The notes under the pieces: generated by a model
Told to the model about the DNA's origin: nothing
The model's database searches: none
What the model saw: the letters and a program-made list of their open reading frames with translations, nothing else
Virus record (IMG/VR): IMGVR_UViG_3300037245_000888
Location: 32,001 to 96,000 of that record
Source: a virus
Reading direction: 5' to 3' (one strand)
DNA length: 64,000 nucleotides
Made by a program: the position numbers and the translations under genes
Shown: one piece after another, positions 1,369 through 62,074 of the stretch
Position numbering within the stretch: position 1 is the stretch's first letter
Layout: every line of letters begins with the position of its first letter

Positions 1369-1848
1369 ATGAAAGGATTACAAGAATGTATTAATTGGAT
1401 GATGGATAATCCATTGAAGAATTTAGAAATAGCAGAAGGTATTGCGATTGCTTACTTTGAAAAAGGTATGTTTTACGAAGGATATAGAGACGAAGCAGAG
1501 GTTTCTGCTATTGATGATTTCTCTATGTTTGATGATAATTATTGGATACCACAATCAGAAAAAGATGAACACGATGCTAAAACTGAAGCTGATAGACTTG
1601 CTGCAATGTCATGTGAAGAGTTATTGTTTGAATGTATTGAGAAGAATATCGATGGATATTTGTCTGTTGAATCTTCTATTTCATTTATAGCAGAATTTAG
1701 TGATGATAAAGTTGCAGTAGACACATCAGGTTTATCAGATGAAATATTCCAATTTTTAAATAGTAATGGAGTTACATTGATTAAGGATGATAAGTTAGTT
1801 GTATTAGAAGATAAGGCTTCTAAATATGATAGTTTATGTGATGAATAA
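1369..1848 (+). CDS. Hypothetical acidic protein
   Basis: ORF track 1342..1848; the ATG at 1369 follows a GAGGGAG RBS. Confidence 0.65.
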   Translation: MKGLQECINWMMDNPLKNLEIAEGIAIAYFEKGMFYEGYRDEAEVSAIDDFSMFDDNYWIPQSEKDEHDAKTEADRLAAMSCEELLFECIEKNIDGYLSVESSISFIAEFSDDKVAVDTSGLSDEIFQFLNSNGVTLIKDDKLVVLEDKASKYDSLCDE

Positions 1849-1859
1849 AAGGAGGAAAA

Positions 1860-2447
1860 ATGAAAAATAAAATTATTATATTATGTGGTGAATCATCATC
1901 AGGTAAGGACTCTATATTAAACATATTAATAAAAGAGTATGGATGGCATAAAGCGGTGTCATACACGACAAGACCAATGAGACAAGGTGAGAAAGATGGA
2001 TATGATTATCATTTCTTAATGTCGAATATCCGGTTTAATGAATTAATGGATACTGGACATATGTTTGAGAAAACAGAATATAAAACTAATATGGGTTTGT
2101 GGCTATATGGATTAGGAGAAGATAGTTTTGTAGATGATAATATTAATGTGTGTATTGTTAATCCTCATGGATTAGATCAATTGTTAGAAATTGAATCATT
2201 GAAAGATAGATTAGTTGTATTTTATATAACAGCTCCGTTCAAACAGAGATTCTTTAGATATTTAAAAAGAGATGCTGATAATGAAAAACATAAGATTGAG
2301 TTGGTTGATAGATTTATAAGAGATGAAGATGATTTTAAAGGGTTTGCAATTAAATATAATACTCTTTCATATAGTAATAAAGATGGCTGTGATATTGAGA
2401 GCTTCTTAATTCTCATGAGAGCAGTTATAAAAGGAGGAGTAATTTAA
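1860..2447 (+). CDS. gmk: Guanylate kinase
   Basis: P-loop CGESSSGKD and the GK signature VSYTTRPMRQGEKDGYDYHF. Confidence 0.9.
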   Translation: MKNKIIILCGESSSGKDSILNILIKEYGWHKAVSYTTRPMRQGEKDGYDYHFLMSNIRFNELMDTGHMFEKTEYKTNMGLWLYGLGEDSFVDDNINVCIVNPHGLDQLLEIESLKDRLVVFYITAPFKQRFFRYLKRDADNEKHKIELVDRFIRDEDDFKGFAIKYNTLSYSNKDGCDIESFLILMRAVIKGGVI

Positions 2448-3097
2448 TGAATAAAATAAGAGCAGTAGTATTCGATTTTGACGGTGTAGTAGTTTCATCG
2501 GGAGATGTAATCTGCAAACTATATAATTTAGATCCAATTAACTATGAAGATCAAAACTTTGAAGAAGCAGATTTTTCCAAATGTGTGAAGTGGGATATGT
2601 CGGATGTAGTTCCATTAATAGATTCAAAGACTCAAGAAAATATGTTTGCGTCATCAGACTTCTTTGACAATGTAGAATTTAATGTTGGCATGAAAGATCT
2701 AATCAATCAGTTACATGAAGAGGAATATCAAATAGTATTCTGCTCAAGAGGAACAGTTGAAAATATTAACAAGAAAAATAAATGGCTTAAGAAACATTTT
2801 CCTTTTGCAATCATGTTACCTGTAATTGGTAGCTGGGATGCTGTCATTGAGAAAGATTGGATTAATATGAAGGATTGTGTTTTCATTGATGATAGATCAA
2901 ACAATCTTAGTAGCAGTAATGCATCATTTAAAATTCTATATGACGAACACAACAAATTTGGAAGAGAATGGAATAGTGGAGTTGATTGTGCTGATACATT
3001 CGCTGGTAGTGCATTTAATATTTATACTGAGATTAAGAAATATGAAAATGGTGATTATGATGTAAAAGAAGAATGTGTAGCAATTAACCAAAAATAA
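2447..3097 (+). CDS. HAD-family 5'(3')-deoxyribonucleotidase
   Basis: HAD motif I FDFDGVV, K..WLKKHFP, motif IV FIDDRSNNL. Confidence 0.8.
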   Translation: MNKIRAVVFDFDGVVVSSGDVICKLYNLDPINYEDQNFEEADFSKCVKWDMSDVVPLIDSKTQENMFASSDFFDNVEFNVGMKDLINQLHEEEYQIVFCSRGTVENINKKNKWLKKHFPFAIMLPVIGSWDAVIEKDWINMKDCVFIDDRSNNLSSSNASFKILYDEHNKFGREWNSGVDCADTFAGSAFNIYTEIKKYENGDYDVKEECVAINQK

Positions 3098-3100
3098 CTC

Positions 3101-3129
3101 TTGCACTCTACTATCTCCTGTGGTATCAT
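3101..3129 (+). promoter_or_regulatory. sigmaA-type promoter for the recombinase
   Basis: TTGCAC-17nt-TATCAT with extended -10 TG. Confidence 0.55.
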
Positions 3130-3197
3130 TAAATCAGAAGTTAAGATAATTAAACAAACAGATCACAACAAACAATAATAATATAGTGGAGGTAGTT

Positions 3198-4076
3198 ATG
3201 AGTGAGAGTATGTTAATTAAATCAAATTTGGTAGATGGTTTCGTGAGCTTCAAAATTAAAATTAATGTATTAGATAAAACAATATCAGAATATAAAGCAA
3301 GTGTAGATAAATTTATCATTTGGTTACAAGATCAGGATAATGCTAAACTTGACAAGTCATCTACTGATAATATGTTGGTAAGTGTAACTCGCAAGATAGC
3401 GCAATCGTATGTGTTTGTAATTAGAGAGACATTGAAATTTAATAGCACTAAGAAAGCGATAGCAGGTATTCTTCAACTTTACAATTTTATCATGATGGAA
3501 ATGGATTTACTTGGAAATGCTTTTAGTGGATTACAGGTGCCAAAGGATAGTGTTACTGAAATTAAAGAATACATTTCATTAAAGGAATCTAATATAATAT
3601 TAAATTCATGTGAAAGTACTCAACACAGATTACTAATTGGACTGGCTTTTAAATCTGGATTAAGAATTCAAGAAATTTCTAAAATTGAAGTCGCTAATAT
3701 TGATTTAGAAAACAAAACGATTGATGTATTGAGAAAAGGTAGACGTATGCGTAGATTAGATATTGCTGCTGAATTAATTAATGATTTAACTATTCAAGTT
3801 GAGAATTGTAATGCACTTAATCACACCTTCTTATTTCAAGGTAGAAGAGGTATTAAGCCATTGACAACCAAATCTATCAGAGATACTTTTGATGGTTATC
3901 TTGGCAAACTAGACTTGAATTCTGACTACGTATTCCATAGTTTAAGAAAGGTTTATAGTACAGATTTATATTATAATGAGAATAAGACAATGCATGAGAT
4001 AAGTAAATTATTAGATCATAGTAATACCGGAATTACTGAATTGTATGTTTTGGATAAGAAGTATGTTGAGCTATAA
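3198..4076 (+). CDS. Tyrosine recombinase (XerC/D-like integrase/resolvase)
   Basis: Catalytic set GLRIQE, RKG, HSLR, LDH, TELY. GGAGG RBS before ATG 3198. Confidence 0.9.
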   Translation: MSESMLIKSNLVDGFVSFKIKINVLDKTISEYKASVDKFIIWLQDQDNAKLDKSSTDNMLVSVTRKIAQSYVFVIRETLKFNSTKKAIAGILQLYNFIMMEMDLLGNAFSGLQVPKDSVTEIKEYISLKESNIILNSCESTQHRLLIGLAFKSGLRIQEISKIEVANIDLENKTIDVLRKGRRMRRLDIAAELINDLTIQVENCNALNHTFLFQGRRGIKPLTTKSIRDTFDGYLGKLDLNSDYVFHSLRKVYSTDLYYNENKTMHEISKLLDHSNTGITELYVLDKKYVEL

Positions 4077-33799: not shown

Positions 33800-35671
33800 T
33801 TACACCAAAGAAATCTCGTGCTCAATACCATCACCACTTTGAAAATATAACTTATTATCCGCTTTAGTGTAAACTCTACCAAAGTTAGGAATTGCTGTAG
33901 GTGTTGTAGTCTCCTCTAAAATTATATTATTAACAGTAGGTTCATCAGTAAATTCCAAAGCTGTTTCACCAGTATTAACTTGAGCTATTTTAAAAGCTTC
34001 ACCTACATAATCAGCAGGAGTATCACTTAACCCTAAAAATGTTGTAATCCCACTTCCACCAACTCCTGAGCCAGCAGTATTATTAGGGACAAAACCTCTG
34101 AGATCTTTATAACCCACAACTGTTCCGTTGTATTCAAATTGACCACCGTTCAATTTGAATACAAATAATCCTATTAAGAATCCAACACCCTGAAAATCAC
34201 TAGGTATTGTATATACATTTTTACTATCTTTATCATTTAATGCATCTTTCTCTTTACCATAATTACCTCTAGGTAGGTTACACATAATATGAGACATTTC
34301 ACCTGACTTATTCGCTATTCCCCATACTACTAATCCAAACCACTTTCCGTTTAAGGAATCACCTAATGCATCAACTGTTATATCATTTAAATTAGTTGTT
34401 GATCTAAAAGGTGTGACAGGATCATTTACAACATGTATATCAGCACCTGTACTCATACTAAGTGCTGGGAAAGTTTGTTTATGCATTTGATATACTTGAC
34501 CTGATGTTACATCTACATATACATTATTTGGAGTGCCAAGTATAGTTCCTTCGGTTCCATTAGCCCAACTTGAATCCATCTGTCTTATTCTATCAGTGAT
34601 ATGAGATAAATGTCCTTGGAATGTAGTTGTATTCTCTATCGCATCATTCCAATTCTGGTTTCTTAGTGCATCATCTGTTTGAGTGGTAGATGCACTTTGT
34701 AAGACTATAGTTGCAACTTTAGCATGTTCGTCTGTAGGGAACGATGCTGTGCTAACCGTTAATACTTTTGTATCTTTTGGTATATACACATAATTAGTTT
34801 GTGGTATAGCGTCAGTACCAGCAGTTAACGTGATAGTTACATCTGGAGTTGCTGTAAATATGGTCAATCCATCACTAAACATTAATGTTAAGTCAGGATG
34901 TCCATTTGAAGGTGATAATGCTCCTGTAATAATAGTTCCATTACTTGTAATTCTAAAGTCAAAAGTTTCTCTAATTGTTCCATTCCAAAAGTTTATTGTA
35001 GTATCTTCTGGTATACCATGTCGATCAACAATTATTTCGCCTTCTAATGCATCTACTTTTGTAACCAATCCTATTAATATTTCATAGTTTGGAAACTCTG
35101 GTCTAGTATTTGTTAATCCACCTAATACATCTGCTGATAAATATACTGGCCCTTCAGATAATAATGAAGTATCAAAATCTCTTACCTTTCCAAATACATT
35201 TACAAATCCTTCTGCACCATTTAAAATTTCTGATGTTGCTACGCCATAAGCGGTACTTATTGTTTCATGACTATCTGCCTTAGCTTTTGCTACATTCGGG
35301 AATCCAGTTGTGCTTGTTCCTATTGGATATACTACCTCTCCAGAGCTTATTCCTATTCCTGAATTATTATGAACTTTGATCAAGTCTTCCTGTCCTATTT
35401 GTATGGCAGTAGTTCCTATTCCTGTTCCAATTTCAGCTGTTGAATCCTCTTCGTTCCAATGAAATCTACCTTTCTGATGTGGTACAGAGGTTCCTAGAGT
35501 TGTATCTAAATCTATGAAGTCTGTTTCTATTTCTTTATTTACGAATGTTTGAATTACATCTAATGTTATATTTTTACTTAAATTACCATTCTCAGTGTCA
35601 GTCATAACTACTTTATCCGTGCCTGTAGTTGATGTTTTGGTTGGCAAATTATTAATTTTTATATCTGACAT
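33800..35671 (-). CDS. Putative fibre/virion appendage protein
   Basis: MSDIKINNLP N-terminus, GEVVY..A.AD..GVA..G.V..FG.V capsid-fibre-like motif, TTFLGLSDTP.DY repeat; Thr/Gly-rich. Confidence 0.6.
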   Translation of the reverse strand: MSDIKINNLPTKTSTTGTDKVVMTDTENGNLSKNITLDVIQTFVNKEIETDFIDLDTTLGTSVPHQKGRFHWNEEDSTAEIGTGIGTTAIQIGQEDLIKVHNNSGIGISSGEVVYPIGTSTTGFPNVAKAKADSHETISTAYGVATSEILNGAEGFVNVFGKVRDFDTSLLSEGPVYLSADVLGGLTNTRPEFPNYEILIGLVTKVDALEGEIIVDRHGIPEDTTINFWNGTIRETFDFRITSNGTIITGALSPSNGHPDLTLMFSDGLTIFTATPDVTITLTAGTDAIPQTNYVYIPKDTKVLTVSTASFPTDEHAKVATIVLQSASTTQTDDALRNQNWNDAIENTTTFQGHLSHITDRIRQMDSSWANGTEGTILGTPNNVYVDVTSGQVYQMHKQTFPALSMSTGADIHVVNDPVTPFRSTTNLNDITVDALGDSLNGKWFGLVVWGIANKSGEMSHIMCNLPRGNYGKEKDALNDKDSKNVYTIPSDFQGVGFLIGLFVFKLNGGQFEYNGTVVGYKDLRGFVPNNTAGSGVGGSGITTFLGLSDTPADYVGEAFKIAQVNTGETALEFTDEPTVNNIILEETTTPTAIPNFGRVYTKADNKLYFQSGDGIEHEISLV

Positions 35672-35682
35672 TGCTTCACCTC

Positions 35683-37959
35683 CTAGTGATTAGCTGCTAG
35701 ATTATCTCCGTCTTCAGTTAATGTTGCATCTCCACCCTCAGTCAATAAATGAGTAAGGGTATTAAAAAAATCCTCAGCTTTTACTAAACAATCTCCTGTC
35801 AATGAGGTTGAGAAGAATCCTATTTGTTTTGTTATTTTATTTATGAACATTTGGTCATTTGTAGTTTCTGTTACTGTTGCTATTTCAATTACTTTAGCTA
35901 CTCCAGCAGCGTCATATAAAATGAACGTTGTATCTGCTATAAATACTTCTGCGTAGAATTGATCAATTTTGAAATAGTTTGGTGATGCGAAATCACCTAT
36001 GATTGGTGTTCCTGATATATCTGTTATTACGTAATTGTAAGTTGCTCTTTTAGTGTACGTTGGTACAGCCTTTCCACTTGGCGATTCATAGTTATATGCT
36101 ACAACAAATGGATCTGTAGACACTTCTATTCCATCGTTTATCATATTTATTTGTGTATATCGTGTGTCTATTAACGTGTCTACTGTTGTAATACATCCTT
36201 CTAAATAAGCAATAGACCCAGCGTCTTTTTCCCAATCTTCTTGTCCGCCTAACAATGGTTTGTAAGATAAACAAAATACATTCCAAGCCACTGTACCAGC
36301 AGTTACATCAGTAACTCCGGGGCCAAAATTATTAAATAAATTATCTGCAAATCGAACCACTTGGACACCACCATGGCAAGTTGAACCTTGGTCACTGGCA
36401 CTATCTCCATTGTTTCTTGCTACACAGTTGAACTCAATTATGTTTTGATTGTCATGACTAAAACCATCACCTTGACCACTTGAAGCTATGCAATTTTGGA
36501 AAAATGAATCGAATCCAACAACATTGGTGCTATAGCAACCAGCAGCACCAGCGTATTTAGCTGTACAATTCTTCATATAAGTGTTTGTAATGCTATTTAA
36601 ACCACCTAAGTATCCACCTTCTATGTTTACATTTTCAATATAGTTTCCAGCACCAGTTGTAAGTCTCAAAACATGTGTTCTTTTATAAGTTACTATATCA
36701 CTATCTGGCACCCTTGAGTCAGGTGTATGAACATACATTTTACTTACACCATCCCAGAACCAACTACCTTGAGTACTATCCACCAAAGCAATTGAACCCA
36801 CTTCTAAAAGTGTTGTATAATCTTGGTCTTGGTAAACTAATATACTCATATCGGTTACATTACTACATCTATCCATAGTAGATTCATAAACATTAGTAAA
36901 TCCACCTGTCTTAGACCATGTTGCTGGTATTGCATTTGTTATTTTTACATTATCTCCGGTACCTATCATAGAAGTTCCAACACGCATGGTTGCACCCTGA
37001 AAAGCATCATCGTTGTTATAAGTACCGTTAGCAATATGCATCTCTACTAAGTCTACTTTTGTTCTTGCTTCTTTGATAGTTTTAAAAGCTGTTAAAGCTG
37101 TTAGTCCATCATTTGTATCCAGCCCTGTGACGATATCAACATAATATTTTTTACCTACAAACTTATAATCAGATACATCGAAATCACTCGCATAACTACC
37201 GTCCGGCATTAAATAAATATCAATTGGTGGAACCCAATTGTCGGTTAAATCAGTTGGCGGGACTACAATAATTCCTCCAGTTATGTCGCTATAATCTTTT
37301 TCTTGTAGGGTATCATCTAATATTCTAAAGTCTGCTTCAACATAATATGCGACAGAATTTACACCTTCGTTTGGTATAATTGCATCCTTTTCTATAGGAT
37401 CAGTTGCTAGAGCATCCCAAAAATTATTAACGCCATTAGCAACGCTATAACCTTGTTGATTTGCAAGAGATTCTATATTATTTACTTCTACCCATGTAGG
37501 AGTTGCACTCAACTTAGATATTCTTCCATTTACATGGTCAGCAATTGTATCTCCAGCACCCTCTTCAAATTTGAAGTAGTCACCTATTGATGTGATTTTT
37601 ATATCTGCTACTTTTTTAGTATTTGGAAATGTAAAGAAACCACTTCCGTCAGTTGTTCCAGCAACATCTAATAATGTATCAGCATCCAAATATGTTAATG
37701 GCTCATTTAATAAACCAATATCCGCGGTTAATATGCCATCACCAAGTATATATTTTGCTTTTATTGATACTCTAGTTTCATCTCCAACTTGATCTTCCAT
37801 GAAGCCATCAACTACCGTGTCGGCATATGAGATGAGTCCACAGTCACGTACTAGTAAATCAAAAGCACTAAGACCTTTCTTAACATAATCAATACCAAAT
37901 CTCATTGCTGCTCTGACTATTCCTATAAAGGTATTCTTACCATTCTTTGAATAAATCAT
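35683..37959 (-). CDS. Putative tailspike/depolymerase with a right-handed beta-helix
   Basis: YYVDIVTGLDTNDGLT..TAFKTI.EA motif followed by beta-helix-like repeats (NCIASSGQGDGFSHD, NCVARNNGD). Confidence 0.65.
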   Translation of the reverse strand: MIYSKNGKNTFIGIVRAAMRFGIDYVKKGLSAFDLLVRDCGLISYADTVVDGFMEDQVGDETRVSIKAKYILGDGILTADIGLLNEPLTYLDADTLLDVAGTTDGSGFFTFPNTKKVADIKITSIGDYFKFEEGAGDTIADHVNGRISKLSATPTWVEVNNIESLANQQGYSVANGVNNFWDALATDPIEKDAIIPNEGVNSVAYYVEADFRILDDTLQEKDYSDITGGIIVVPPTDLTDNWVPPIDIYLMPDGSYASDFDVSDYKFVGKKYYVDIVTGLDTNDGLTALTAFKTIKEARTKVDLVEMHIANGTYNNDDAFQGATMRVGTSMIGTGDNVKITNAIPATWSKTGGFTNVYESTMDRCSNVTDMSILVYQDQDYTTLLEVGSIALVDSTQGSWFWDGVSKMYVHTPDSRVPDSDIVTYKRTHVLRLTTGAGNYIENVNIEGGYLGGLNSITNTYMKNCTAKYAGAAGCYSTNVVGFDSFFQNCIASSGQGDGFSHDNQNIIEFNCVARNNGDSASDQGSTCHGGVQVVRFADNLFNNFGPGVTDVTAGTVAWNVFCLSYKPLLGGQEDWEKDAGSIAYLEGCITTVDTLIDTRYTQINMINDGIEVSTDPFVVAYNYESPSGKAVPTYTKRATYNYVITDISGTPIIGDFASPNYFKIDQFYAEVFIADTTFILYDAAGVAKVIEIATVTETTNDQMFINKITKQIGFFSTSLTGDCLVKAEDFFNTLTHLLTEGGDATLTEDGDNLAANH

Positions 37960-37970
37960 AGTAATCCTCC

Positions 37971-38327
37971 TTAATATTTTGAGCCATTAATATATAGTTT
38001 AGCTCCTAAATCGTTACTTAGCTTAATTCCTCTAACCTGAACACCCGCAATAATTAATGTTTCTCCAGCTTTGCAACAGATTACAGGTTCATCTGTATAG
38101 TCCTCTGTTGTTGGGTTATCAACGGAACTTCTAACAATAACAAAATAAATGTCTGTTGCGTCTGCCTCAATAGTTGTGCTATTAGCATTTAGATTCTTAT
38201 CATCCTTTGTCAAGAACATGATCAATTCTTGGTCTACTAACGTTTCATAAAATCTGTCCAATACTGGTGCTCCATCGTATTTTAGTGTTGAAAAAAGTGC
38301 TCTCGCGTACAATTCTCCATAACTCAT
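37971..38327 (-). CDS. Hypothetical (possible virion) protein
   Basis: GGAGG RBS; first gene of the post-lysis module. Confidence 0.65.
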   Translation of the reverse strand: MSYGELYARALFSTLKYDGAPVLDRFYETLVDQELIMFLTKDDKNLNANSTTIEADATDIYFVIVRSSVDNPTTEDYTDEPVICCKAGETLIIAGVQVRGIKLSNDLGAKLYINGSKY

Positions 38328-38425
38328 GTAAATACCTCCATCTCCGCCTACACGGTATTTTATTTATATAAATAACACAATTGTTATTATATCTAATTTA
38401 ATAATTTAATATTTAACTATATCCA

Positions 38426-38480
38426 CAAACTTAAAAATACACCCACAGTTGTTAACCACGAATGCATTTCCTCAAGTTTG
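38426..38480 (-). other. Long G-U-rich RNA hairpin (processing site, terminator or ncRNA element)
   Basis: 25-bp stem with 8 G-U pairs that folds well only on the - strand. Confidence 0.6.
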
Positions 38481-38514
38481 TTATTGCTTATTTAATTTTA
38501 ATATTTATTAGTTT

Positions 38515-38590
38515 TAATCGCTTCTAATCGCTTCTAATACCATACTAATGTATTCTAATACTATCGACCATAATCGACCGCAATCGATTG
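38515..38590. repeat. Helically phased short direct repeats
   Basis: TAAT at 38515/25/35/46/56 (TAATCGCTTC twice); ATCGA at 38563/73/83. Confidence 0.6.
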
Positions 38591-38607
38591 GACGATACTT
38601 GATACTA

Positions 38608-39018
38608 CTAAGCAAATAAGTATATTACTTGAATAGCACCACGCATAATTTTCTGATCACTTTCAGACAATTCAATATCCATTTCTGTTAAAATCTCAAT
38701 TGCTCTTGTCATTACATCTTCCTCAGAAACCATTTTACTTCCTTCAAGTATGATACATGACTGAATATATTCAAGGCTATCGTGAACTACTCCATTAATC
38801 AAACTAATAGTCTTATAATCTAAATCAGTATTATTCTTTAATAGACTAGCTGTGAAATTTAATATAACTTGTAAGTCATCAATTTTATCAGCTGTATTTT
38901 TTGGATTGTCAATAATACCTTTATTTTTTAATACTAAAATTGTAACTGATATGATAAACAATACGGCCACTGTGATTAAGCCTACGGTGCTTGTATCTAA
39001 TCCTAAGTTTTCTAACAT
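38608..39018 (-). CDS. Holin (LL-H-like, N-terminal TM)
   Basis: Single N-terminal TM and C-terminal AIEIL..MDIELSESD..IMRGAIQ; downstream of the endolysin. Confidence 0.6.
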   Translation of the reverse strand: MLENLGLDTSTVGLITVAVLFIISVTILVLKNKGIIDNPKNTADKIDDLQVILNFTASLLKNNTDLDYKTISLINGVVHDSLEYIQSCIILEGSKMVSEEDVMTRAIEILTEMDIELSESDQKIMRGAIQVIYLFA

Positions 39019-39084
39019 AATAATCTCCTTTTATTGTATAGTTCATTATTTGGCGTTATCGGTTCGTTGTTAATTCCTTATTTG

Positions 39085-39435
39085 TTATCCATTTTTAGTA
39101 TTCATATCATCAGCTACTTCTTCTAATATGCTATTATTTGAATCAGATAAATCTATTTCAATTCCCATTGATTTAGTTATATTTTTTAATCCCTTGTCTA
39201 CAATAGTATTGACAAGTTTTGTTTTTTCAATTGTTGCTTTACCTGAATATAAGAATAATTCAAACATCCATCCCTTTGCAACCCAACTAAATATAAACTC
39301 AAGTTGTTGTATTTCATATCCTTTTATGAATAAGTATCCCATTGCAAGAATACACGATACAAAGATAATATTAACTATCCAAAGGAGTTTTTTACTAGTG
39401 GCATATTTCAATATTTTTTTAAATAATTTCTTCAT
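39085..39435 (-). CDS. Putative holin (2 TM)
   Basis: Basic N-terminus, TSKKLL, two TMs and a charged tail; directly after the endolysin. Confidence 0.6.
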   Translation of the reverse strand: MKKLFKKILKYATSKKLLWIVNIIFVSCILAMGYLFIKGYEIQQLEFIFSWVAKGWMFELFLYSGKATIEKTKLVNTIVDKGLKNITKSMGIEIDLSDSNNSILEEVADDMNTKNG

Positions 39436-39446
39436 TTTATTCTCCT

Positions 39447-41381
39447 TTAAAACTTAACCAATTGATAAAGTCTTCTCGTTGTTGTATAATACCAAACACC
39501 ATCAACCTTCAATAATGTTGAATTTCCTGCATCCCAGCTATTAATAAACCCGAGAACCATAGCCTTACCCATTCTGGTAGCTGTTTTATTACTCATATAT
39601 GGGTGTACAGCAAAATACAATTCACCGTTAAGTTTAAAGTTATAAGGTCTTTTAGTTGCTCTAATTACATCTGCATATTTACCAGTGAATCCTGATGTAG
39701 CATATGCACTTGTTGATGGATATAATTCAAGTCCAGCATCAGCGAAAACTACACCATTGCCTAATTCCTTTGCGTTTAATACAGTTTTAACATCAAAGTG
39801 TTTACCACCTTTTGAAAATAGCGTAAAAGTAGGTTTATAATGCACCTGTCCGTCAAGTAATAATTTACCTTTTGTCATTGTAATTCCATACTTATACATT
39901 TTTCTTGCTGTAGGAGAATACCATTGATAACTTGAAGTAATTAAATTTGATTCAATATACCTATTACCAGCCTTATCTCCAATTGTAATATCTAATCTAC
40001 TTGGATTAACCTTAACAACTATTGATGTATATTTACTATTTTTAGGAATCTTCCAAGACTCTGTTCCATATTTACCATTGTGATATTTATGAAAATCTAA
40101 TATAAGCTTTTTATTAATTTTAAATATATCATCTTCATTTAGAGTATTTCCATGTGAAGATAGTCCAATTTCAGCTTTCAAATCTTTAATTCCTAATATA
40201 GTACCATTGCCTTTTTTCTTATCACATGAGAATGCTCTATAATATCCAAGTGATTGTAATGCTCTCTGTAAGTATAATATTTGACTAGATTTGAATGAAC
40301 TGGTTTTATTATAGTTGATTACACCCTTATAAACTAATTGTGGAATAGCTTTGTTATATAGTAGTACCTCAGACTTCACCACAGCCTCACCACTGTCATC
40401 AAATGGTTCACTGGTAATAACTGTTGGCTCATCAATAACTACTGTCTGAGAGGCTATTAGAGCTGTATTAATAGCTGTAGCAATATTCTCTGTAATTTTA
40501 TTATTATACCAAATATTTAATGGTTTACAGAAATTATATAATGCTGTTGAAAGACCATTACCATAAGATTTATCTAATCCATTTACATCAAATCCTAATT
40601 GAGTTAATGCTTTCTGAACTTCTAATACATCATCAGAAACTTCACCTTTTAATATATCTCTTCCAACATACATATATAAAACTTTAATAGTATAAGGCTC
40701 ATATGGGTCAATAAAATCTTTAATATCATCAATTGTTTTCTTTTCTAAGTCAGTAAATTTCTCACCTGACATTTTAATTTTAATGTTGATTCTTTCTCCT
40801 GTCATATTTTCTCCTTTTTTAGATCCTTTTTTAATCTCATATAAACTTTTAACATCTTGTAAAAATACATTCCACCTACTATAATCCACTTTATTATATT
40901 CTGGACAATAATATTTAGGACAATCTTTACCTGATATAATCCCATGATTTGTTACTTTATCTAATCCTAAATTATATTCAATTAATAAGTCAACTGTTCT
41001 TTCTACCATTATAAAATACACGATATCAGAATAGTTTCCTTTCATGTTTATTGTTGGAACTTCAATTGAATATACAACAGAATTAGGGTAAGTGTCACCC
41101 ATCATATTATATTTTTCTTTTGTGTATGTTTTGGAGCCTACACTATATGCCATTTCATTGTCTGGTATAACTTTCCAAACATCACCATTAGTATCAATTA
41201 TTTCATGAGCTGATCCATAGCTTTTCTTACCATATTTTCTTGATTCAAAGAAGTCTCTTACAGCGGATGCTCTTGCATTAATAACAGCCTCCCAATGAAC
41301 ACATATAAATTTAACCTCAGCTTTCTTCTGTGGCCTACTCCATTTATTAGGAGTTAAATATTTTTCTATTACTTTGTACAT
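39447..41381 (-). CDS. Endolysin: Amidase_2 + two PG-binding-like domains + C-terminal phosphodiester-glycosidase-like domain
   Basis: ICVHW, SAHEIID, EMAYSVG, SIE, H...GKDCP; DVLEVQKALTQLGF..DKSYG and LQRALQSLGY..DKKKG; NSWDAGNST. Confidence 0.85.
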   Translation of the reverse strand: MYKVIEKYLTPNKWSRPQKKAEVKFICVHWEAVINARASAVRDFFESRKYGKKSYGSAHEIIDTNGDVWKVIPDNEMAYSVGSKTYTKEKYNMMGDTYPNSVVYSIEVPTINMKGNYSDIVYFIMVERTVDLLIEYNLGLDKVTNHGIISGKDCPKYYCPEYNKVDYSRWNVFLQDVKSLYEIKKGSKKGENMTGERINIKIKMSGEKFTDLEKKTIDDIKDFIDPYEPYTIKVLYMYVGRDILKGEVSDDVLEVQKALTQLGFDVNGLDKSYGNGLSTALYNFCKPLNIWYNNKITENIATAINTALIASQTVVIDEPTVITSEPFDDSGEAVVKSEVLLYNKAIPQLVYKGVINYNKTSSFKSSQILYLQRALQSLGYYRAFSCDKKKGNGTILGIKDLKAEIGLSSHGNTLNEDDIFKINKKLILDFHKYHNGKYGTESWKIPKNSKYTSIVVKVNPSRLDITIGDKAGNRYIESNLITSSYQWYSPTARKMYKYGITMTKGKLLLDGQVHYKPTFTLFSKGGKHFDVKTVLNAKELGNGVVFADAGLELYPSTSAYATSGFTGKYADVIRATKRPYNFKLNGELYFAVHPYMSNKTATRMGKAMVLGFINSWDAGNSTLLKVDGVWYYTTTRRLYQLVKF

Positions 41382-41382
41382 A

Positions 41383-41493
41383 TTACCTCCTTTTACAATC
41401 CAATCTATTCAAAGCCATTGTAACATATTCAATTAACAATGTAAAGAACATGTTGGCTATATTTTTCAATTTAATAAGAAAAGGGAATTTCAC
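41383..41493 (-). CDS. Possible 36-aa hydrophobic peptide between agrB and the endolysin
   Basis: GTG overlaps the agrB TGA (GTGA). Open frame MKFPFLIKLKNIANMFFTLLIEYVTMALNRLDCKRR* fills the gap exactly and stops 1 nt before the endolysin ATG. Confidence 0.35.
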   Translation of the reverse strand: MKFPFLIKLKNIANMFFTLLIEYVTMALNRLDCKRR

Positions 41494-41873
41494 CCTAATC
41501 TATTTTTCTTTTTTCTTAATACTACTCCAGCAATATATCCTAATGGAATAGCTAACCACCATATAATGAATGAGCTTATTAAGGCTAATCCGATTATTAG
41601 GATTGTTGATACAATAAAACATTGCCACATTTCTGGCATGTGTACACCCTTTCTACCTACTCTGGCCAATATAAAAAATAACATTGCTAAAATAGATTCA
41701 GGGACTACACCGAGCATAAATGCTATACTCATAATGAATGTTGTCTCGTAAACTTGGAACATTGACATATCAATAAACATTGCCAGATATTTAGTATCCT
41801 CTGGCATATTATGTTTATCACATATTTTCTTTGCTAATTTGTAGTAAATTGTGTTCTTTCTGCTTTTACTCAT
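41490..41873 (-). CDS. agrB: AgrB-like membrane peptidase (short form, 127 aa)
   Basis: Multi-TM protein. ARVGRKGVHMPEMWQCFIVS gives R71-x6-H78-x6-C85, the same spacing as R70/H77/C84 of S. aureus AgrB. Adjacent to an AgrD-like peptide. Confidence 0.8.
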   Translation of the reverse strand: MSKSRKNTIYYKLAKKICDKHNMPEDTKYLAMFIDMSMFQVYETTFIMSIAFMLGVVPESILAMLFFILARVGRKGVHMPEMWQCFIVSTILIIGLALISSFIIWWLAIPLGYIAGVVLRKKKNRLG

Positions 41874-41967
41874 AATCTGATAAATCTGTTTCTCCGACTA
41901 TCCAAAAACATCCAGTTTTACTTGTTAGTCCTAATAGTCTCTTAATAAGTTCCATTAATTTTTTCAT
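41866..41967 (-). CDS. agrD: AgrD-like cyclic thiolactone autoinducer propeptide (33 aa), not in ORF track
   Basis: GGAGG RBS; MKKLMELIKRLLGLTSKTGCFWIVGETDLSDYE* has an amphipathic leader, a C-FWIV core and an acidic tail. Its stop overlaps the agrB start. Confidence 0.82.
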   Translation of the reverse strand: MKKLMELIKRLLGLTSKTGCFWIVGETDLSDYE

Positions 41968-42424
41968 ACTTTCCTCCAAGTCTCATATAGGTTATATAAC
42001 AAATCATATATTGAAATAGTCTAACAGGAGTATAAAATATTATAGTGGAATATATACTTTCTTTTACTGGCGATATATCACTGCCAAGAATATATAGAAT
42101 CGGCACATATATTATAAACTCCATGACTCCAACAATCACTATGGCTATAGCTGTATTTAAAAATACTTTTAGTGCTTTTTCTTTGTTTACTTTGCTTAGG
42201 AAAGATATTGTTAATCCGGCCAATGCTAGATAGACTAATCTATTTAATATGCTATCACTACCAAATGGTAATAATATTAGCCCTAACACAGAACATATTA
42301 ATATTGATATGATTGTGTATTTAGTCTTAATATTTATCTTTGAAAACATTAATGTCATCAATACTACAAATGTTGCTTCAAAGATTTGTATACCGATAAA
42401 GTCTGTTAACCAGATGTAATTCAT
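41942..42424 (-). CDS. Multi-TM protein resembling an AgrC/VirS sensor domain without the kinase
   Basis: About 5 TMs with intramembrane Glu (IFEAT, VMEF). No H-box or ATPase domain. Lies immediately upstream of and overlaps agrD. Confidence 0.6.
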   Translation of the reverse strand: MNYIWLTDFIGIQIFEATFVVLMTLMFSKINIKTKYTIISILICSVLGLILLPFGSDSILNRLVYLALAGLTISFLSKVNKEKALKVFLNTAIAIVIVGVMEFIIYVPILYILGSDISPVKESIYSTIIFYTPVRLFQYMICYITYMRLGGKYEKINGTY

Positions 42425-42978
42425 AAAATCAGCTCCTTTAACATAATTAATATATCAAAGAAAGTTTTGCCACCTGATGTAAAAAACGAGAATATACTAA
42501 CCAACAGTATAATTGACATTGTTACTATAAATCTACTTATCCATTTGTTTAATTTACTTTTGTTGTAGAACAACCTAAATTGATCTCTCAGGTTATTATT
42601 CTTAATCTCAGCTTTCATACCTTGTATTTCATTTAATATCAAACCTACTGATCTTTTCAAATCATCTTGTTCTCTACTTGATATAAATTGATTAGCTAAG
42701 ACTTGAGCATTGTTTTCTAAATATTCTTCTAGCTTACTACTTATTTCATCGATAGAATTTGAAAGCTTACCAATAACATCTCTATCTTCTTGACGATTAT
42801 TTTTCATCTCTTTGAGTTCAAATCGAATTTCAGTTATTTCAAGTTGCATTTTATGAAAAGTATCAACAGTTATCATACTTCCTTTTACATGGTCTACTTC
42901 CTGTCTTAATAATTTTATTTCATTTTCAAGATTATTGATTTTGCTCTTGTTAGCCTCACCAATACATTTTTCAGTCAT
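42421..42978 (-). CDS. Coiled-coil protein with C-terminal TM (XhlA/hemolysin-like lysis accessory)
   Basis: Long heptad region then one TM; first gene of the lysis region; ATGA overlap with the next gene. Confidence 0.55.
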   Translation of the reverse strand: MTEKCIGEANKSKINNLENEIKLLRQEVDHVKGSMITVDTFHKMQLEITEIRFELKEMKNNRQEDRDVIGKLSNSIDEISSKLEEYLENNAQVLANQFISSREQDDLKRSVGLILNEIQGMKAEIKNNNLRDQFRLFYNKSKLNKWISRFIVTMSIILLVSIFSFFTSGGKTFFDILIMLKELIL

Positions 42979-42997
42979 TTGTCATCACACCACCTCA

Positions 42998-44065
42998 CTA
43001 TATCTTCTCTATATCATAATTCAACTGAAGAGAGAAGTTTGGTGTTGTCACGCCTTCCCCATTTACAACTTTGATATATACATCGTCATCTTTGTCTATT
43101 AAACCGTCAATTATAACTAAATCTTTTGTTTCATTTTTAGTTGGGAATAATTCTAAGTCAGTAAAAGTTGTATCAGATATAATATCAGAGCCTTCGATTA
43201 ATTGTAAATTTGAAGTATTGACATCATCTATTCCAATACTATCTCCATTGCTGATTATTTTAATTCCTGTGATTGTACATGTGTAACCATCTGGTGCCGT
43301 GAATAATATTCTGTGTATTGCTATATCTGGTGGATTAGAGAATGATGGAATATCAAATACTATCATTTGATTTGTGCTGTCTTTTAATATTGCAATTAAT
43401 GACACATATTCCTCTTTCATATCTGAAAATTCTGATGTGCGTGTTGACTCATTAGATTGTCTAGTTGACTCATTAATTGTTCTAACGCCCTCATTTACAG
43501 TTCTCTGAGTTTCTTTTTCCTGTCTAGTATCTTCACTAGCAATTCTAATATTCTCACTAGATACTCTTTCTGATTCTTGAAATACTCTATCAATTTCTGA
43601 TGCTTCACGCTCATCTTCTTCAAAAGATATATTAGATAATTTAGAAATCAAATCACTAACTACTGAAACTTTGTCTTCATTAGATAAAGTACATCCATTC
43701 ATCATATCTGCCAATACAACAAATCTAAATATATTACTTGTGACAATTTGACCACTGGCAGTATATAATTTTATTAAACCTGTGACTGAACCACTTTTAC
43801 TTAATGATTCATTACATAATTCATATGTTATTGAGTCTGAATTTAATATGCATAAACATGGTTCCATATAAGTTGCATCTTGGAACTTTAGAGTAATATA
43901 AACTTCGGATAGTTCAGAGTAATTAATCTCCGAACCATCTTCTCTGGTAACTGTAAAGACTAGCTTACCAACTCCATTGTCATTTTGACTGAAATATCTT
44001 CCAGTATTAATAGATCCAGATGAGTTTATTTTTAGCTGGATTGGTATAGTTTCTATTGAAATCAT
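42998..44065 (-). CDS. BppU-like baseplate upper protein
   Basis: N-terminal FSQNDNGVGKLVF (DUF2479-like) domain and E..R heptad coiled-coil repeats. Confidence 0.65.
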   Translation of the reverse strand: MISIETIPIQLKINSSGSINTGRYFSQNDNGVGKLVFTVTREDGSEINYSELSEVYITLKFQDATYMEPCLCILNSDSITYELCNESLSKSGSVTGLIKLYTASGQIVTSNIFRFVVLADMMNGCTLSNEDKVSVVSDLISKLSNISFEEDEREASEIDRVFQESERVSSENIRIASEDTRQEKETQRTVNEGVRTINESTRQSNESTRTSEFSDMKEEYVSLIAILKDSTNQMIVFDIPSFSNPPDIAIHRILFTAPDGYTCTITGIKIISNGDSIGIDDVNTSNLQLIEGSDIISDTTFTDLELFPTKNETKDLVIIDGLIDKDDDVYIKVVNGEGVTTPNFSLQLNYDIEKI

Positions 44066-61004: not shown

Positions 61005-62012
61005 TTAGACCCACGTGTACTTGCCAAACTTACGTCCCGTTACGATACCAACACCAACTTCTCTATAATACATAAACTCAACAGAGAAATCTGCGTTATC
61101 GCCAATACCCTTATTTGTGATGATTGGAACGCCTTCTTCTACAATCTTAACTAAAGAACCTAAGTCAGCAGGAATAACCATTAATTGCTTATTAGAAAGT
61201 AAGAAAGTGAAAGTATTCTTAACATGCATTTGATCTACAGGAACTAAGTTGTAACCCTCAGCAGTCTTATAGAAACCATTGTTATACATATCTAAGTTAG
61301 CTTGCTCAGTTGCGATAACTGGAGTTAAGTTTTTCAATGCAGATCTTGTTCCGACAATAATAACATCAGAATTCATATTTTCTGCTTGAACGTGCTCAAC
61401 TAATGTGTAAACATTGTCAAGGTCAAAACCACCAGCATCATTAACGTTGAATGTAGCATTTCCGTTAACTGGAGCAACAGCATAGAAAGCTGTCCATGTT
61501 AATTCTTTTACATGCTGAACATAAGAAGCAACAACCTTAGTCATCATTTTAGTCCAGTTTGCTTGTCCTGATAAGAATCTCTTGAAGCTATCAAAGATTT
61601 TAATTCCTTTGGCTTCAGTAGGAATAGTTAAATAACCATTCTCAATTCTTTGTCTTCTGATATTACCATTACCTTTAGCAATAGTACATACATCAAATAA
61701 ATCAGAGTTTTCAATTTCAAATCTAGTTGTTTCATTCCATCCTTGTGTGATAATCTCAGCGAAAGGAAGGTCTGCTGCTAATTGATCAGTTGCTCTAGCA
61801 CCAACAAATGCTTCGATGATTTCAAAGAACATACCTGAATTTGGATTTCTATCAACTTCAAGAATAGATGGATTCTCTTTACCGAAGAACTTTACCATTT
61901 CTACTCTTACTTTTTTTTCTAAGTCCACTTGTGAATACTTTGTAGACTCGCCTTTTGACGCAGCCTCAAGATCAATCATCATATCTTTAATTATTTGCAA
62001 ATTTTCGTTCAT
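61005..62012 (-). CDS. Major capsid protein
   Basis: ~335 aa with FFEIIE, IAKGNGNIRRQRI and IIVGTRSAL motifs. Follows the protease and decoration genes and is followed by a hairpin. GGAGG RBS before ATG 62012. Confidence 0.8.
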   Translation of the reverse strand: MNENLQIIKDMMIDLEAASKGESTKYSQVDLEKKVRVEMVKFFGKENPSILEVDRNPNSGMFFEIIEAFVGARATDQLAADLPFAEIITQGWNETTRFEIENSDLFDVCTIAKGNGNIRRQRIENGYLTIPTEAKGIKIFDSFKRFLSGQANWTKMMTKVVASYVQHVKELTWTAFYAVAPVNGNATFNVNDAGGFDLDNVYTLVEHVQAENMNSDVIIVGTRSALKNLTPVIATEQANLDMYNNGFYKTAEGYNLVPVDQMHVKNTFTFLLSNKQLMVIPADLGSLVKIVEEGVPIITNKGIGDNADFSVEFMYYREVGVGIVTGRKFGKYTWV

Positions 62013-62074
62013 GTTTAAATCCTCCATAAGATAATATTTACTGTTTCCGATTTACTATAATAACTAATTGGCTA

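Follow-up and report, generated by a model that had tools for sequence, protein, structure and literature searches.

Genes of the agr peptide-signalling type have been known in phages since phiCDHM1, a Clostridioides difficile phage (HG531805) that retains the kinase. In phiCDHM1 the genes agrC-agrB-agrD lie beside the endolysin gene, agrA is absent, and transcription is all that has so far been demonstrated for these genes (PMC3901668). In canonical systems, the AgrD precursor has 40–50 residues and ends in a charged tail of 14–15 residues with a conserved Glu and a Pro-x-Glu-Leu region. The catalytic dyad of Staphylococcus aureus AgrB is H77/C84, and in the published model R70 contacts E34 of AgrD and K139, which lies in a loop, also contacts AgrD (PMC10482373). 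Here, we describe an agr-type cassette in the virus record IMGVR_UViG_3300037245_000888 of IMG/VR. The window that we analysed is a stretch of 64,000 nucleotides (nt), namely bases 32001–96000 of this single 111,832-bp record, and coordinates below refer to the window except where the genome is named. Judged from its sequence, this is a kinase-free and regulator-free agr-type cassette on the late strand beside the endolysin gene. This was also the core of an initial annotation of the same DNA, and it stands. The cassette consists of four genes:

42421..42978, minus strand: coiled-coil/transmembrane (TM) protein of 185 amino acids (aa), made up of a coiled coil at the N-terminal end and a single TM helix near the C-terminus (about residues 150–170)
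41942..42424, minus strand: five-TM membrane protein of 160 aa in the agrC position, predicted to have its N-terminus outside and its C-terminus inside (N-out/C-in), with no DHp or ATPase domain
41866..41967, minus strand: AgrD-like precursor of 33 aa, with a leader (1–19), Cys20 plus FWIV (CFWIV) and a 9-residue acidic tail, GETDLSDYE
41490..41873, minus strand: minimal AgrB core of 127 aa, with a basic cytoplasmic N-terminus, four TM helices, a His78/Cys85 dyad and a basic C-terminus

The locus resembles that of phiCDHM1 in several respects. In both phages a membrane protein precedes AgrB and AgrD, both lack an AgrA/LytTR regulator, and both have these genes immediately beside the endolysin gene. 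However, phiCDHM1 has a full AgrC (453 aa, with HATPase_c_5) and a full AgrB (197 aa), and its genes follow the order C-B-D directly after the endolysin gene, on the strand opposite the lysis genes, in a moron slot next to the lysogeny module. The present phage has a 160-aa kinase-less protein in the AgrC slot, a 127-aa AgrB core and the order C-like-D-B, and its genes are on the late strand upstream of the endolysin gene. The listing of open reading frames (ORFs) confirmed that the minus-strand ORFs of the initial annotation exist at the coordinates it gave. On this strand the order is the BppU_N tail protein, the 185-aa, 160-aa and 33-aa ORFs, the 127-aa AgrB, a gap, the endolysin and two small membrane proteins. 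The overlaps claimed for the cassette were found as well: the 185-aa and 160-aa genes are translationally coupled by an ATGA overlap, the 160-aa gene and the 33-aa ORF share 26 nt, and the 33-aa ORF and agrB share 8 nt (ATGAGTAA).

The assignment of the 127-aa protein is based on family profiles. It matches the Pfam AgrB family PF04647 with 52.6 bits against a cut-off of 23 (E 4.6e-14), which is the only PF04647 match in the genome, and it also matches the NCBIfam AgrB-like model NF002210 (E 1.6e-7). The AgrB homology of 41490–41873, on which the initial annotation had staked its reading beforehand, is thus borne out by both profiles. The same cannot be said of a full-length AgrB, because the PF04647 match covers model positions 3–101 of 185 and the protein has four helices rather than the six of the canonical architecture. 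We aligned it with five phage-borne AgrBs (from phiCDHM1, Brevibacillus phage Davies, a Ruminococcus phage and two gut phage contigs) and found that F67, R71, G76, H78, C85 and P110 were invariant. R71, H78 and C85 correspond to S. aureus R70, H77 and C84 with identical spacing; as in staphylococcal and clostridial AgrB, the His and the Cys are 7 residues apart and the Arg lies 7 residues before the His (PMC10482373). Hydropathy and charge predict that both termini are inside the cell and that the dyad is at the cytoplasmic face of the four helices.

The protein ends 17 residues past the conserved Pro110 in a basic cluster, and the last ~65 residues, which hold two helices, are absent. No remnant of a helix-turn-helix or of any further domain was found downstream of AgrB in any frame. 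Among the 30 nearest Atlas clusters, 29 are AgrB-domain proteins, and their lengths include 117, 134, 136 and 144 aa. A sequence search of the PDB with AgrB gave no match. Taken from its sequence, the 127-aa AgrB is probably a natural short form and not a broken gene.

The 33-aa ORF has a GGAGG ribosome-binding site 5 nt before its ATG at 41967. Its basic leader is amphipathic, with a hydrophobic moment of 0.61 compared with 0.31 for shuffled sequences, and 3.3 % of the shuffles reached a value as high. Staphylococcal and clostridial AgrD share with it the amphipathic leader, the Cys with a four-residue ring and the acidic tail with Glu at +2 (PMC10482373), and this Glu corresponds to E34. The genome holds 1,462 small ORFs, 59 of them with a Shine-Dalgarno site, and an AgrD-like layout was found in one, which adjoins the sole AgrB gene; the layout pattern was defined after this peptide ORF had been seen. 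The Shine-Dalgarno site, the overlap with agrB, the amphipathic leader and the CFWIV ring together uphold the earlier call of an AgrD-like peptide.

We then asked what else of an agr system the phage carries. Genome bases 1–127 are identical to bases 111706–111832, and the record is classed by IMG/VR as having direct terminal repeats. This identity of the ends means that the genome is circularly closed, so statements on absence cover the whole phage. Profile searches of the closed genome for LytTR, HATPase_c_5 (PF14501), HATPase_c (PF02518), Response_reg, Sigma70_r4 and Sigma70_r4_2 found none of them. The initial annotation had noted the lack of a histidine kinase or LytTR regulator in the window, and this observation now extends to the entire 111,832-bp genome. 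As a side observation, an exact terminal identity of 127 bp resembles the k-mer overlap that an assembler leaves in a circular contig, not a biological terminal repeat.

Other phage loci can be compared with this one. A human gut phage contig (MT836496.1, positions 1414–3582; here called L011) has a canonical agr set in the order agrC-agrD-agrB, the same as here, and the ring and tail start of its AgrD, CMWYF-GQD, resemble CFWIV-GE of the present peptide. In phages of Brevibacillus (Davies, Emery, Abouo) and Paenibacillus (Harrison, Paisley), an AgrB match overlaps an annotated membrane-protein gene; among these we inspected the Davies locus. It contains two membrane proteins of ~220 aa, AgrB and a 39-aa peptide ending in PVAPKELRK, beside the integrase (gp44–gp48; L002, 3580–5995). 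However, its AgrB is nearly full length (172 aa, model positions 8–159), its peptide follows AgrB, and its membrane proteins show no similarity to the five-TM family. The last gene of the Davies locus encodes a 121-aa protein annotated as a peptidase, which has a sub-threshold LytTR match (E 0.0074). The Davies locus is possibly an agr-like unit that lacks a kinase and has its DNA-binding domain on a separate protein.

The 160-aa protein occupies the agrC slot of the gene order seen in L011. An AlphaFold2 (AF2) model built with the family alignment showed five helices, with a predicted local distance difference test (pLDDT) value of 76.6 and a predicted template-modelling score (pTM) of 0.76. 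The protein ends after helix 5, and the kinase domains of AgrC are not present. An exhaustive phmmer search over 1.8 billion representatives found only four relatives, all stand-alone proteins of 161–164 aa, one of them on a contig of 120,785 bp; fused or longer relatives were not found, although the search for these was weak. The invariant residues of the family are E16, E102, P133, R135, Y139 and Y146, of which E16, E102 and R135 are embedded in the membrane, and there is no conserved His, Cys or Ser. In an Atlas structure search, the best neighbour was a cluster of 450-aa HATPase_c_5 (AgrC-type) kinases, with a template-modelling score of 0.75 over 146 residues. HATPase_c_5 kinases occurred in 3 of 10 Atlas rows, and a fourth row had SPOB_a in 13 % of its members. 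BFVD returned two phage proteins, both uncharacterised, that agree with it in size and fold.

The remaining comparisons of this protein were negative. No family was found in Pfam, PHROG or NCBIfam, and hhalign comparisons of the five-TM family with the AgrC proteins of phiCDHM1 and L011, and with gp44 and gp45 of Davies, were non-significant. A structure search of the PDB gave generic bundles, with no solved sensor structure among the matches. A complex prediction for the AgrB core and the five-TM protein scored 0.00, a value that counts neither for nor against their interaction. We therefore treat an AgrC-derived, receptor-only membrane domain as a lead suggested by position, predicted topology and structural modelling. 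Of the initial claim of a receptor-only AgrC, the position, the N-out/C-in topology and the one structure search are retained, whereas matches to an AgrC profile and to a PDB fold were not obtained.

The explanation that we prefer, with a probability of about 0.6, is that this is a working agr-type, kinase-free module for production of an autoinducing peptide (AIP), and that the peptide would leave the cell late and act on Agr-type receptors in the host population. From the parts present, the cassette can probably make a cyclic signal peptide. His78 and Cys85 of AgrB would cut off the 9-residue acidic tail and close a thiolactone between Cys20 and Val24, which gives the ring CFWIV. The leader would then be removed, and the peptide would exit the infected cell by export or at lysis. 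Because the phage has no transcriptional output domain, the addressees would most likely be receptors of the Agr type in the host population, and the peptide could activate or block them. The five-TM protein could be a kinase-less, AgrC-derived peptide binder, acting as a decoy or as insulation of the producer cell, or it could be a maturation or export partner that replaces the missing C-terminal half of AgrB. The module would probably be carried on late transcription from the tail operon. Cyclisation, secretion, the timing of expression and any target are predictions from the sequence features described above. The initial annotation had favoured a role in the timing of lysis and had given action on host agr signalling as an alternative; this alternative fits the data at least as well as the lysis model.

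Several points weigh against a working production module. Compared with staphylococcal and clostridial agrBD, the AgrB core has four helices instead of six and lacks the loop and helices that follow the conserved Pro, including the loop that holds K139, and there is no AgrC or AgrA; the activity of such a four-helix core is only predicted. The precursor has 33 residues instead of 40–50, its tail has 9 instead of 14–15, and there is no Pro-x-Glu-Leu region, since the tail contains no Pro and no terminal Leu. The Pfam AgrD and NCBIfam cyclic-lactone autoinducer profiles, which are hidden Markov models (HMMs), did not match the 33-aa ORF at E ≤ 1, and they also failed to match the known AgrD of phiCDHM1 that served as a control. 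The AgrC-like view of the five-TM protein comes from one predicted-structure search, with the hhalign comparisons non-significant, and the invariant membrane-embedded Glu, Glu and Arg resemble a transporter or an enzyme more than the hypervariable sensor of AgrC. In addition, an agr system in the host is assumed.

The genes and the gap around the cassette are as follows:

42998..44065, minus strand: tail/baseplate protein of 355 aa, with BppU_N (PF10651, E 9.2e-9), 19 nt upstream of the cassette
41382..41489, minus strand: intergenic gap of 108 nt between agrB and the endolysin gene, with a sigma-A-like motif and the AAGGAGG ribosome-binding site of the endolysin gene
39447..41381, minus strand: endolysin of 644 aa, an N-acetylmuramoyl-L-alanine amidase with a peptidoglycan-binding domain (Amidase_2, PF01510, E 1e-8; PG_binding_1, PF01471, E 4.8e-6)
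39085..39435, minus strand: small membrane protein of 116 aa, with a strong TM helix (17–35) and an AAGGAG ribosome-binding site, after an 11-nt gap from the endolysin gene
38608..39018, minus strand: protein of 136 aa, carrying a single TM helix at the N-terminal end and an acidic C-terminal region (net charge −10)

The cassette forms an extension of the block of tail genes. On its other side, the initial annotation had stated that no gap was large enough for a promoter, and this is contradicted by the 108-nt gap, the third-largest on the late strand, which contains TTTACA-N17-TACAAT with an upstream TG at 41445–41417. Promoter-like matches of this kind occur at chance frequency in this AT-rich DNA (80 found, 77 expected). 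From the sequence, a separate endolysin promoter is possible, and given this gap and its promoter-like motif, co-transcription of the cassette with the lysis genes is unproven. The RNA fold of the gap was not unusual (z −1.29), an Rfam search of 38000–43300 gave no credible family, and a terminator scan detected weak stems inside ORFs only, near the chance rate. A possible 36-aa ORF annotated in this region (41383–41493) starts with GTG, is preceded by no Shine-Dalgarno site and matches no family; as a gene it is unsupported, and we treat it as non-coding.

The lysis labels of the neighbouring genes fared differently from one another. The endolysin call is confirmed by Amidase_2 and PG_binding_1, and PHROG endolysin families also match the 644-aa protein, down to E 1.9e-18. 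The label of two holins finds no family support: the 116-aa and 136-aa proteins have no match in Pfam, NCBIfam or PHROG, holin families included, and they are small membrane proteins by hydropathy only. The 116-aa protein is a candidate holin by its position and architecture. The 185-aa protein had been called XhlA-like, but the XhlA profile PF10779 has no match in the genome at E ≤ 10 and none of the five members of the 185-aa family matches it in Pfam or PHROGs, so the likeness is reduced to an architecture of a coiled coil with a C-terminal TM helix. The 185-aa protein belongs to an undescribed family with an invariant C-terminus, FSFFTSGGxTFF. It has four relatives with 43–60 % identity; the contigs that carry two of these measure 87 and 94 kb. 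One relative of the 185-aa protein (P0010) and one of the five-TM protein (P0003) each lie on a 2,343-bp JGI contig, a hint that the pair may be conserved. After the lysis genes there is a gene-free stretch of 280 nt (38328–38607), which contains direct repeats of the CTAATCGCTT type with a period of ~10 nt (38514–38564) and AT-rich inverted repeats. At the end of the late strand are two large ORFs of 623 and 758 aa (33800–37959, minus strand) with no Pfam family.

The GC content (the percentage of guanine and cytosine) of the genome is 30 %. A marine sediment metagenome is the only sequencing run in which this DNA was found and is probably the source sample, and no RNA run was listed as containing it; the phage is uncultivated. 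Replication genes occupy the plus strand to ~33 kb, and structural, tail and lysis genes occupy the minus strand from ~64 kb down to 33.8 kb. The features that characterise the phage are:

4848–6791 and 14202–23120, plus strand: replication set of NAD-dependent DNA ligase, PolIII alpha with a PHP domain, and RecD2-like and UvrD-like helicases
3186–4076, plus strand: tyrosine recombinase of 296 aa (PF00589, 81 bits), amid the replication genes
61005–62027, minus strand: capsid-region protein of 340 aa, with no Pfam match

The tyrosine recombinase may indicate that the phage is temperate, or it may be in use as an Xer-like resolvase. The 340-aa protein is 27–31 % identical to the major capsid proteins of SPbeta-like large siphophages, which infect Bacillus, Staphylococcus, Brevibacillus, Alicyclobacillus, Clostridioides and Enterocloster. 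By its capsid protein sequence, the phage is a distant member of the SPbeta-like group. Arbitrium (AimR/AimP) is a system of SPbeta-group phages, and the present phage, with its distantly SPbeta-like capsid, shares with arbitrium a phage-encoded secreted peptide, as predicted here. However, arbitrium is expressed early and relies on a linear hexapeptide and a TPR receptor in the cytoplasm, whereas the present cassette has a membrane peptidase, a precursor with a Cys ring and a position on the late strand. Among sequenced phages, there was no DNA match to the cassette region and no protein match to the five-TM protein. Searches of viral, metagenome and genome collections with the AgrB core, the five-TM protein, the 185-aa protein, the endolysin and the tail protein found no DNA of true relatives. 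A single pattern match in a Prevotella genome was rejected as a chance match of 10 residues and not a relative of the cassette.

Other explanations of the cassette have to be weighed against a production module addressed to host receptors. The five-TM protein, and perhaps the 185-aa protein, may belong to the biosynthesis line as a maturation or export partner of the truncated AgrB and not as a receptor. Such a partner would replace helices 5–6 and provide leader removal of the MroQ type or export of the AbcA/PmtCD type, and the peptide could then be made in any host. This role of the five-TM protein has to be taken seriously, since AgrB is truncated and S. aureus depends on a second protease and on dedicated exporters to release its AIP (PMC9388083; bioRxiv 10.64898/2026.09.29.755489). 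It agrees with an AgrB that consists of the four-helix core only, with the translational chaining of all four genes, and with the invariant E16, E102 and R135 in the membrane, which are typical of transporters or enzymes. However, no protease or transporter family was detected, His, Cys and Ser are not conserved in the five-TM family, its structural neighbours are kinase sensor domains, and the weak search returned no fused relatives; we regard this explanation of the cassette as rather unlikely. The cassette could also be a decaying remnant of a captured agr locus that has no present function, with an AgrC of which only the membrane part persists, a truncated AgrB and a shortened AgrD. This would account for three parts that each fall short of canonical length (PMC10482373) and for the fact that no near relatives of this AgrB copy were found. 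We give it very little credence: the frames are intact, with no stops or frameshifts, their ribosome-binding sites and overlaps are good, AgrB retains all of its invariant residues, the five-TM and 185-aa families are full length across diverged contigs, and short AgrBs are a populated natural class.

The lysis model of the initial annotation proposes that a secreted cyclic peptide is bound by a kinase-less five-TM receptor, which acts on the coiled-coil/TM protein or a holin. Lysis would be delayed or advanced as in T4 lysis inhibition, through a transcription-independent quorum circuit, and burst time would depend on the number of infected neighbour cells. As the phage has no transcriptional output domain, this model would need a protein–protein output. 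The cassette does lie between the tail genes and the endolysin gene on the same strand, the coiled-coil/TM protein is tightly coupled to the five-TM protein and shares the general architecture of XhlA-type lysis accessories, and a receptor made late could influence little besides lysis. However, adjacency is the only link between the cassette and the control of cell-burst timing: neither the XhlA label nor the holin label passes any HMM test, the 108-nt gap with its promoter-like site intervenes before the endolysin gene, and the known phage agr genes (phiCDHM1, Davies) occupy moron or lysogeny positions with no tie to lysis. The slot beside the lysis genes is, moreover, a common landing site for accessory genes. 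We conclude that a mechanism running from the receptor to a holin or XhlA is very unlikely. The peptide could also be an antimicrobial or toxic cyclic peptide that harms competitors, with the five-TM protein as immunity, comparable to sublancin (sunA/sunI) on SPbeta. The type member SPbeta carries a peptide bacteriocin operon, the capsid protein puts the present phage among the SPbeta-like large siphophages, the tyrosine recombinase makes a prophage stage possible, and the pairing of a peptide gene with a small polytopic protein is typical of immunity. However, AgrB/AgrD products are known as signals and not as antibiotics, the cassette is within the late structural strand and not in a lysogeny-expressed island, and no bacteriocin or immunity family was matched in Pfam, NCBIfam or PHROG, so that a bacteriocin seems highly improbable.

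A literature search found no description of kinase-free agr modules on the late strand of phages. The present set is the smallest to date. Besides the precursor and a four-helix AgrB core, it includes an orphan membrane protein in the agrC position; it is placed amid late genes, and the phage itself provides no signalling output. An active core would define the minimal AgrB enzyme and would show that phages in the lytic phase broadcast agr-type peptides into host populations. If the five-TM protein is a kinase-less receptor, it would represent a new way of reading such peptides.

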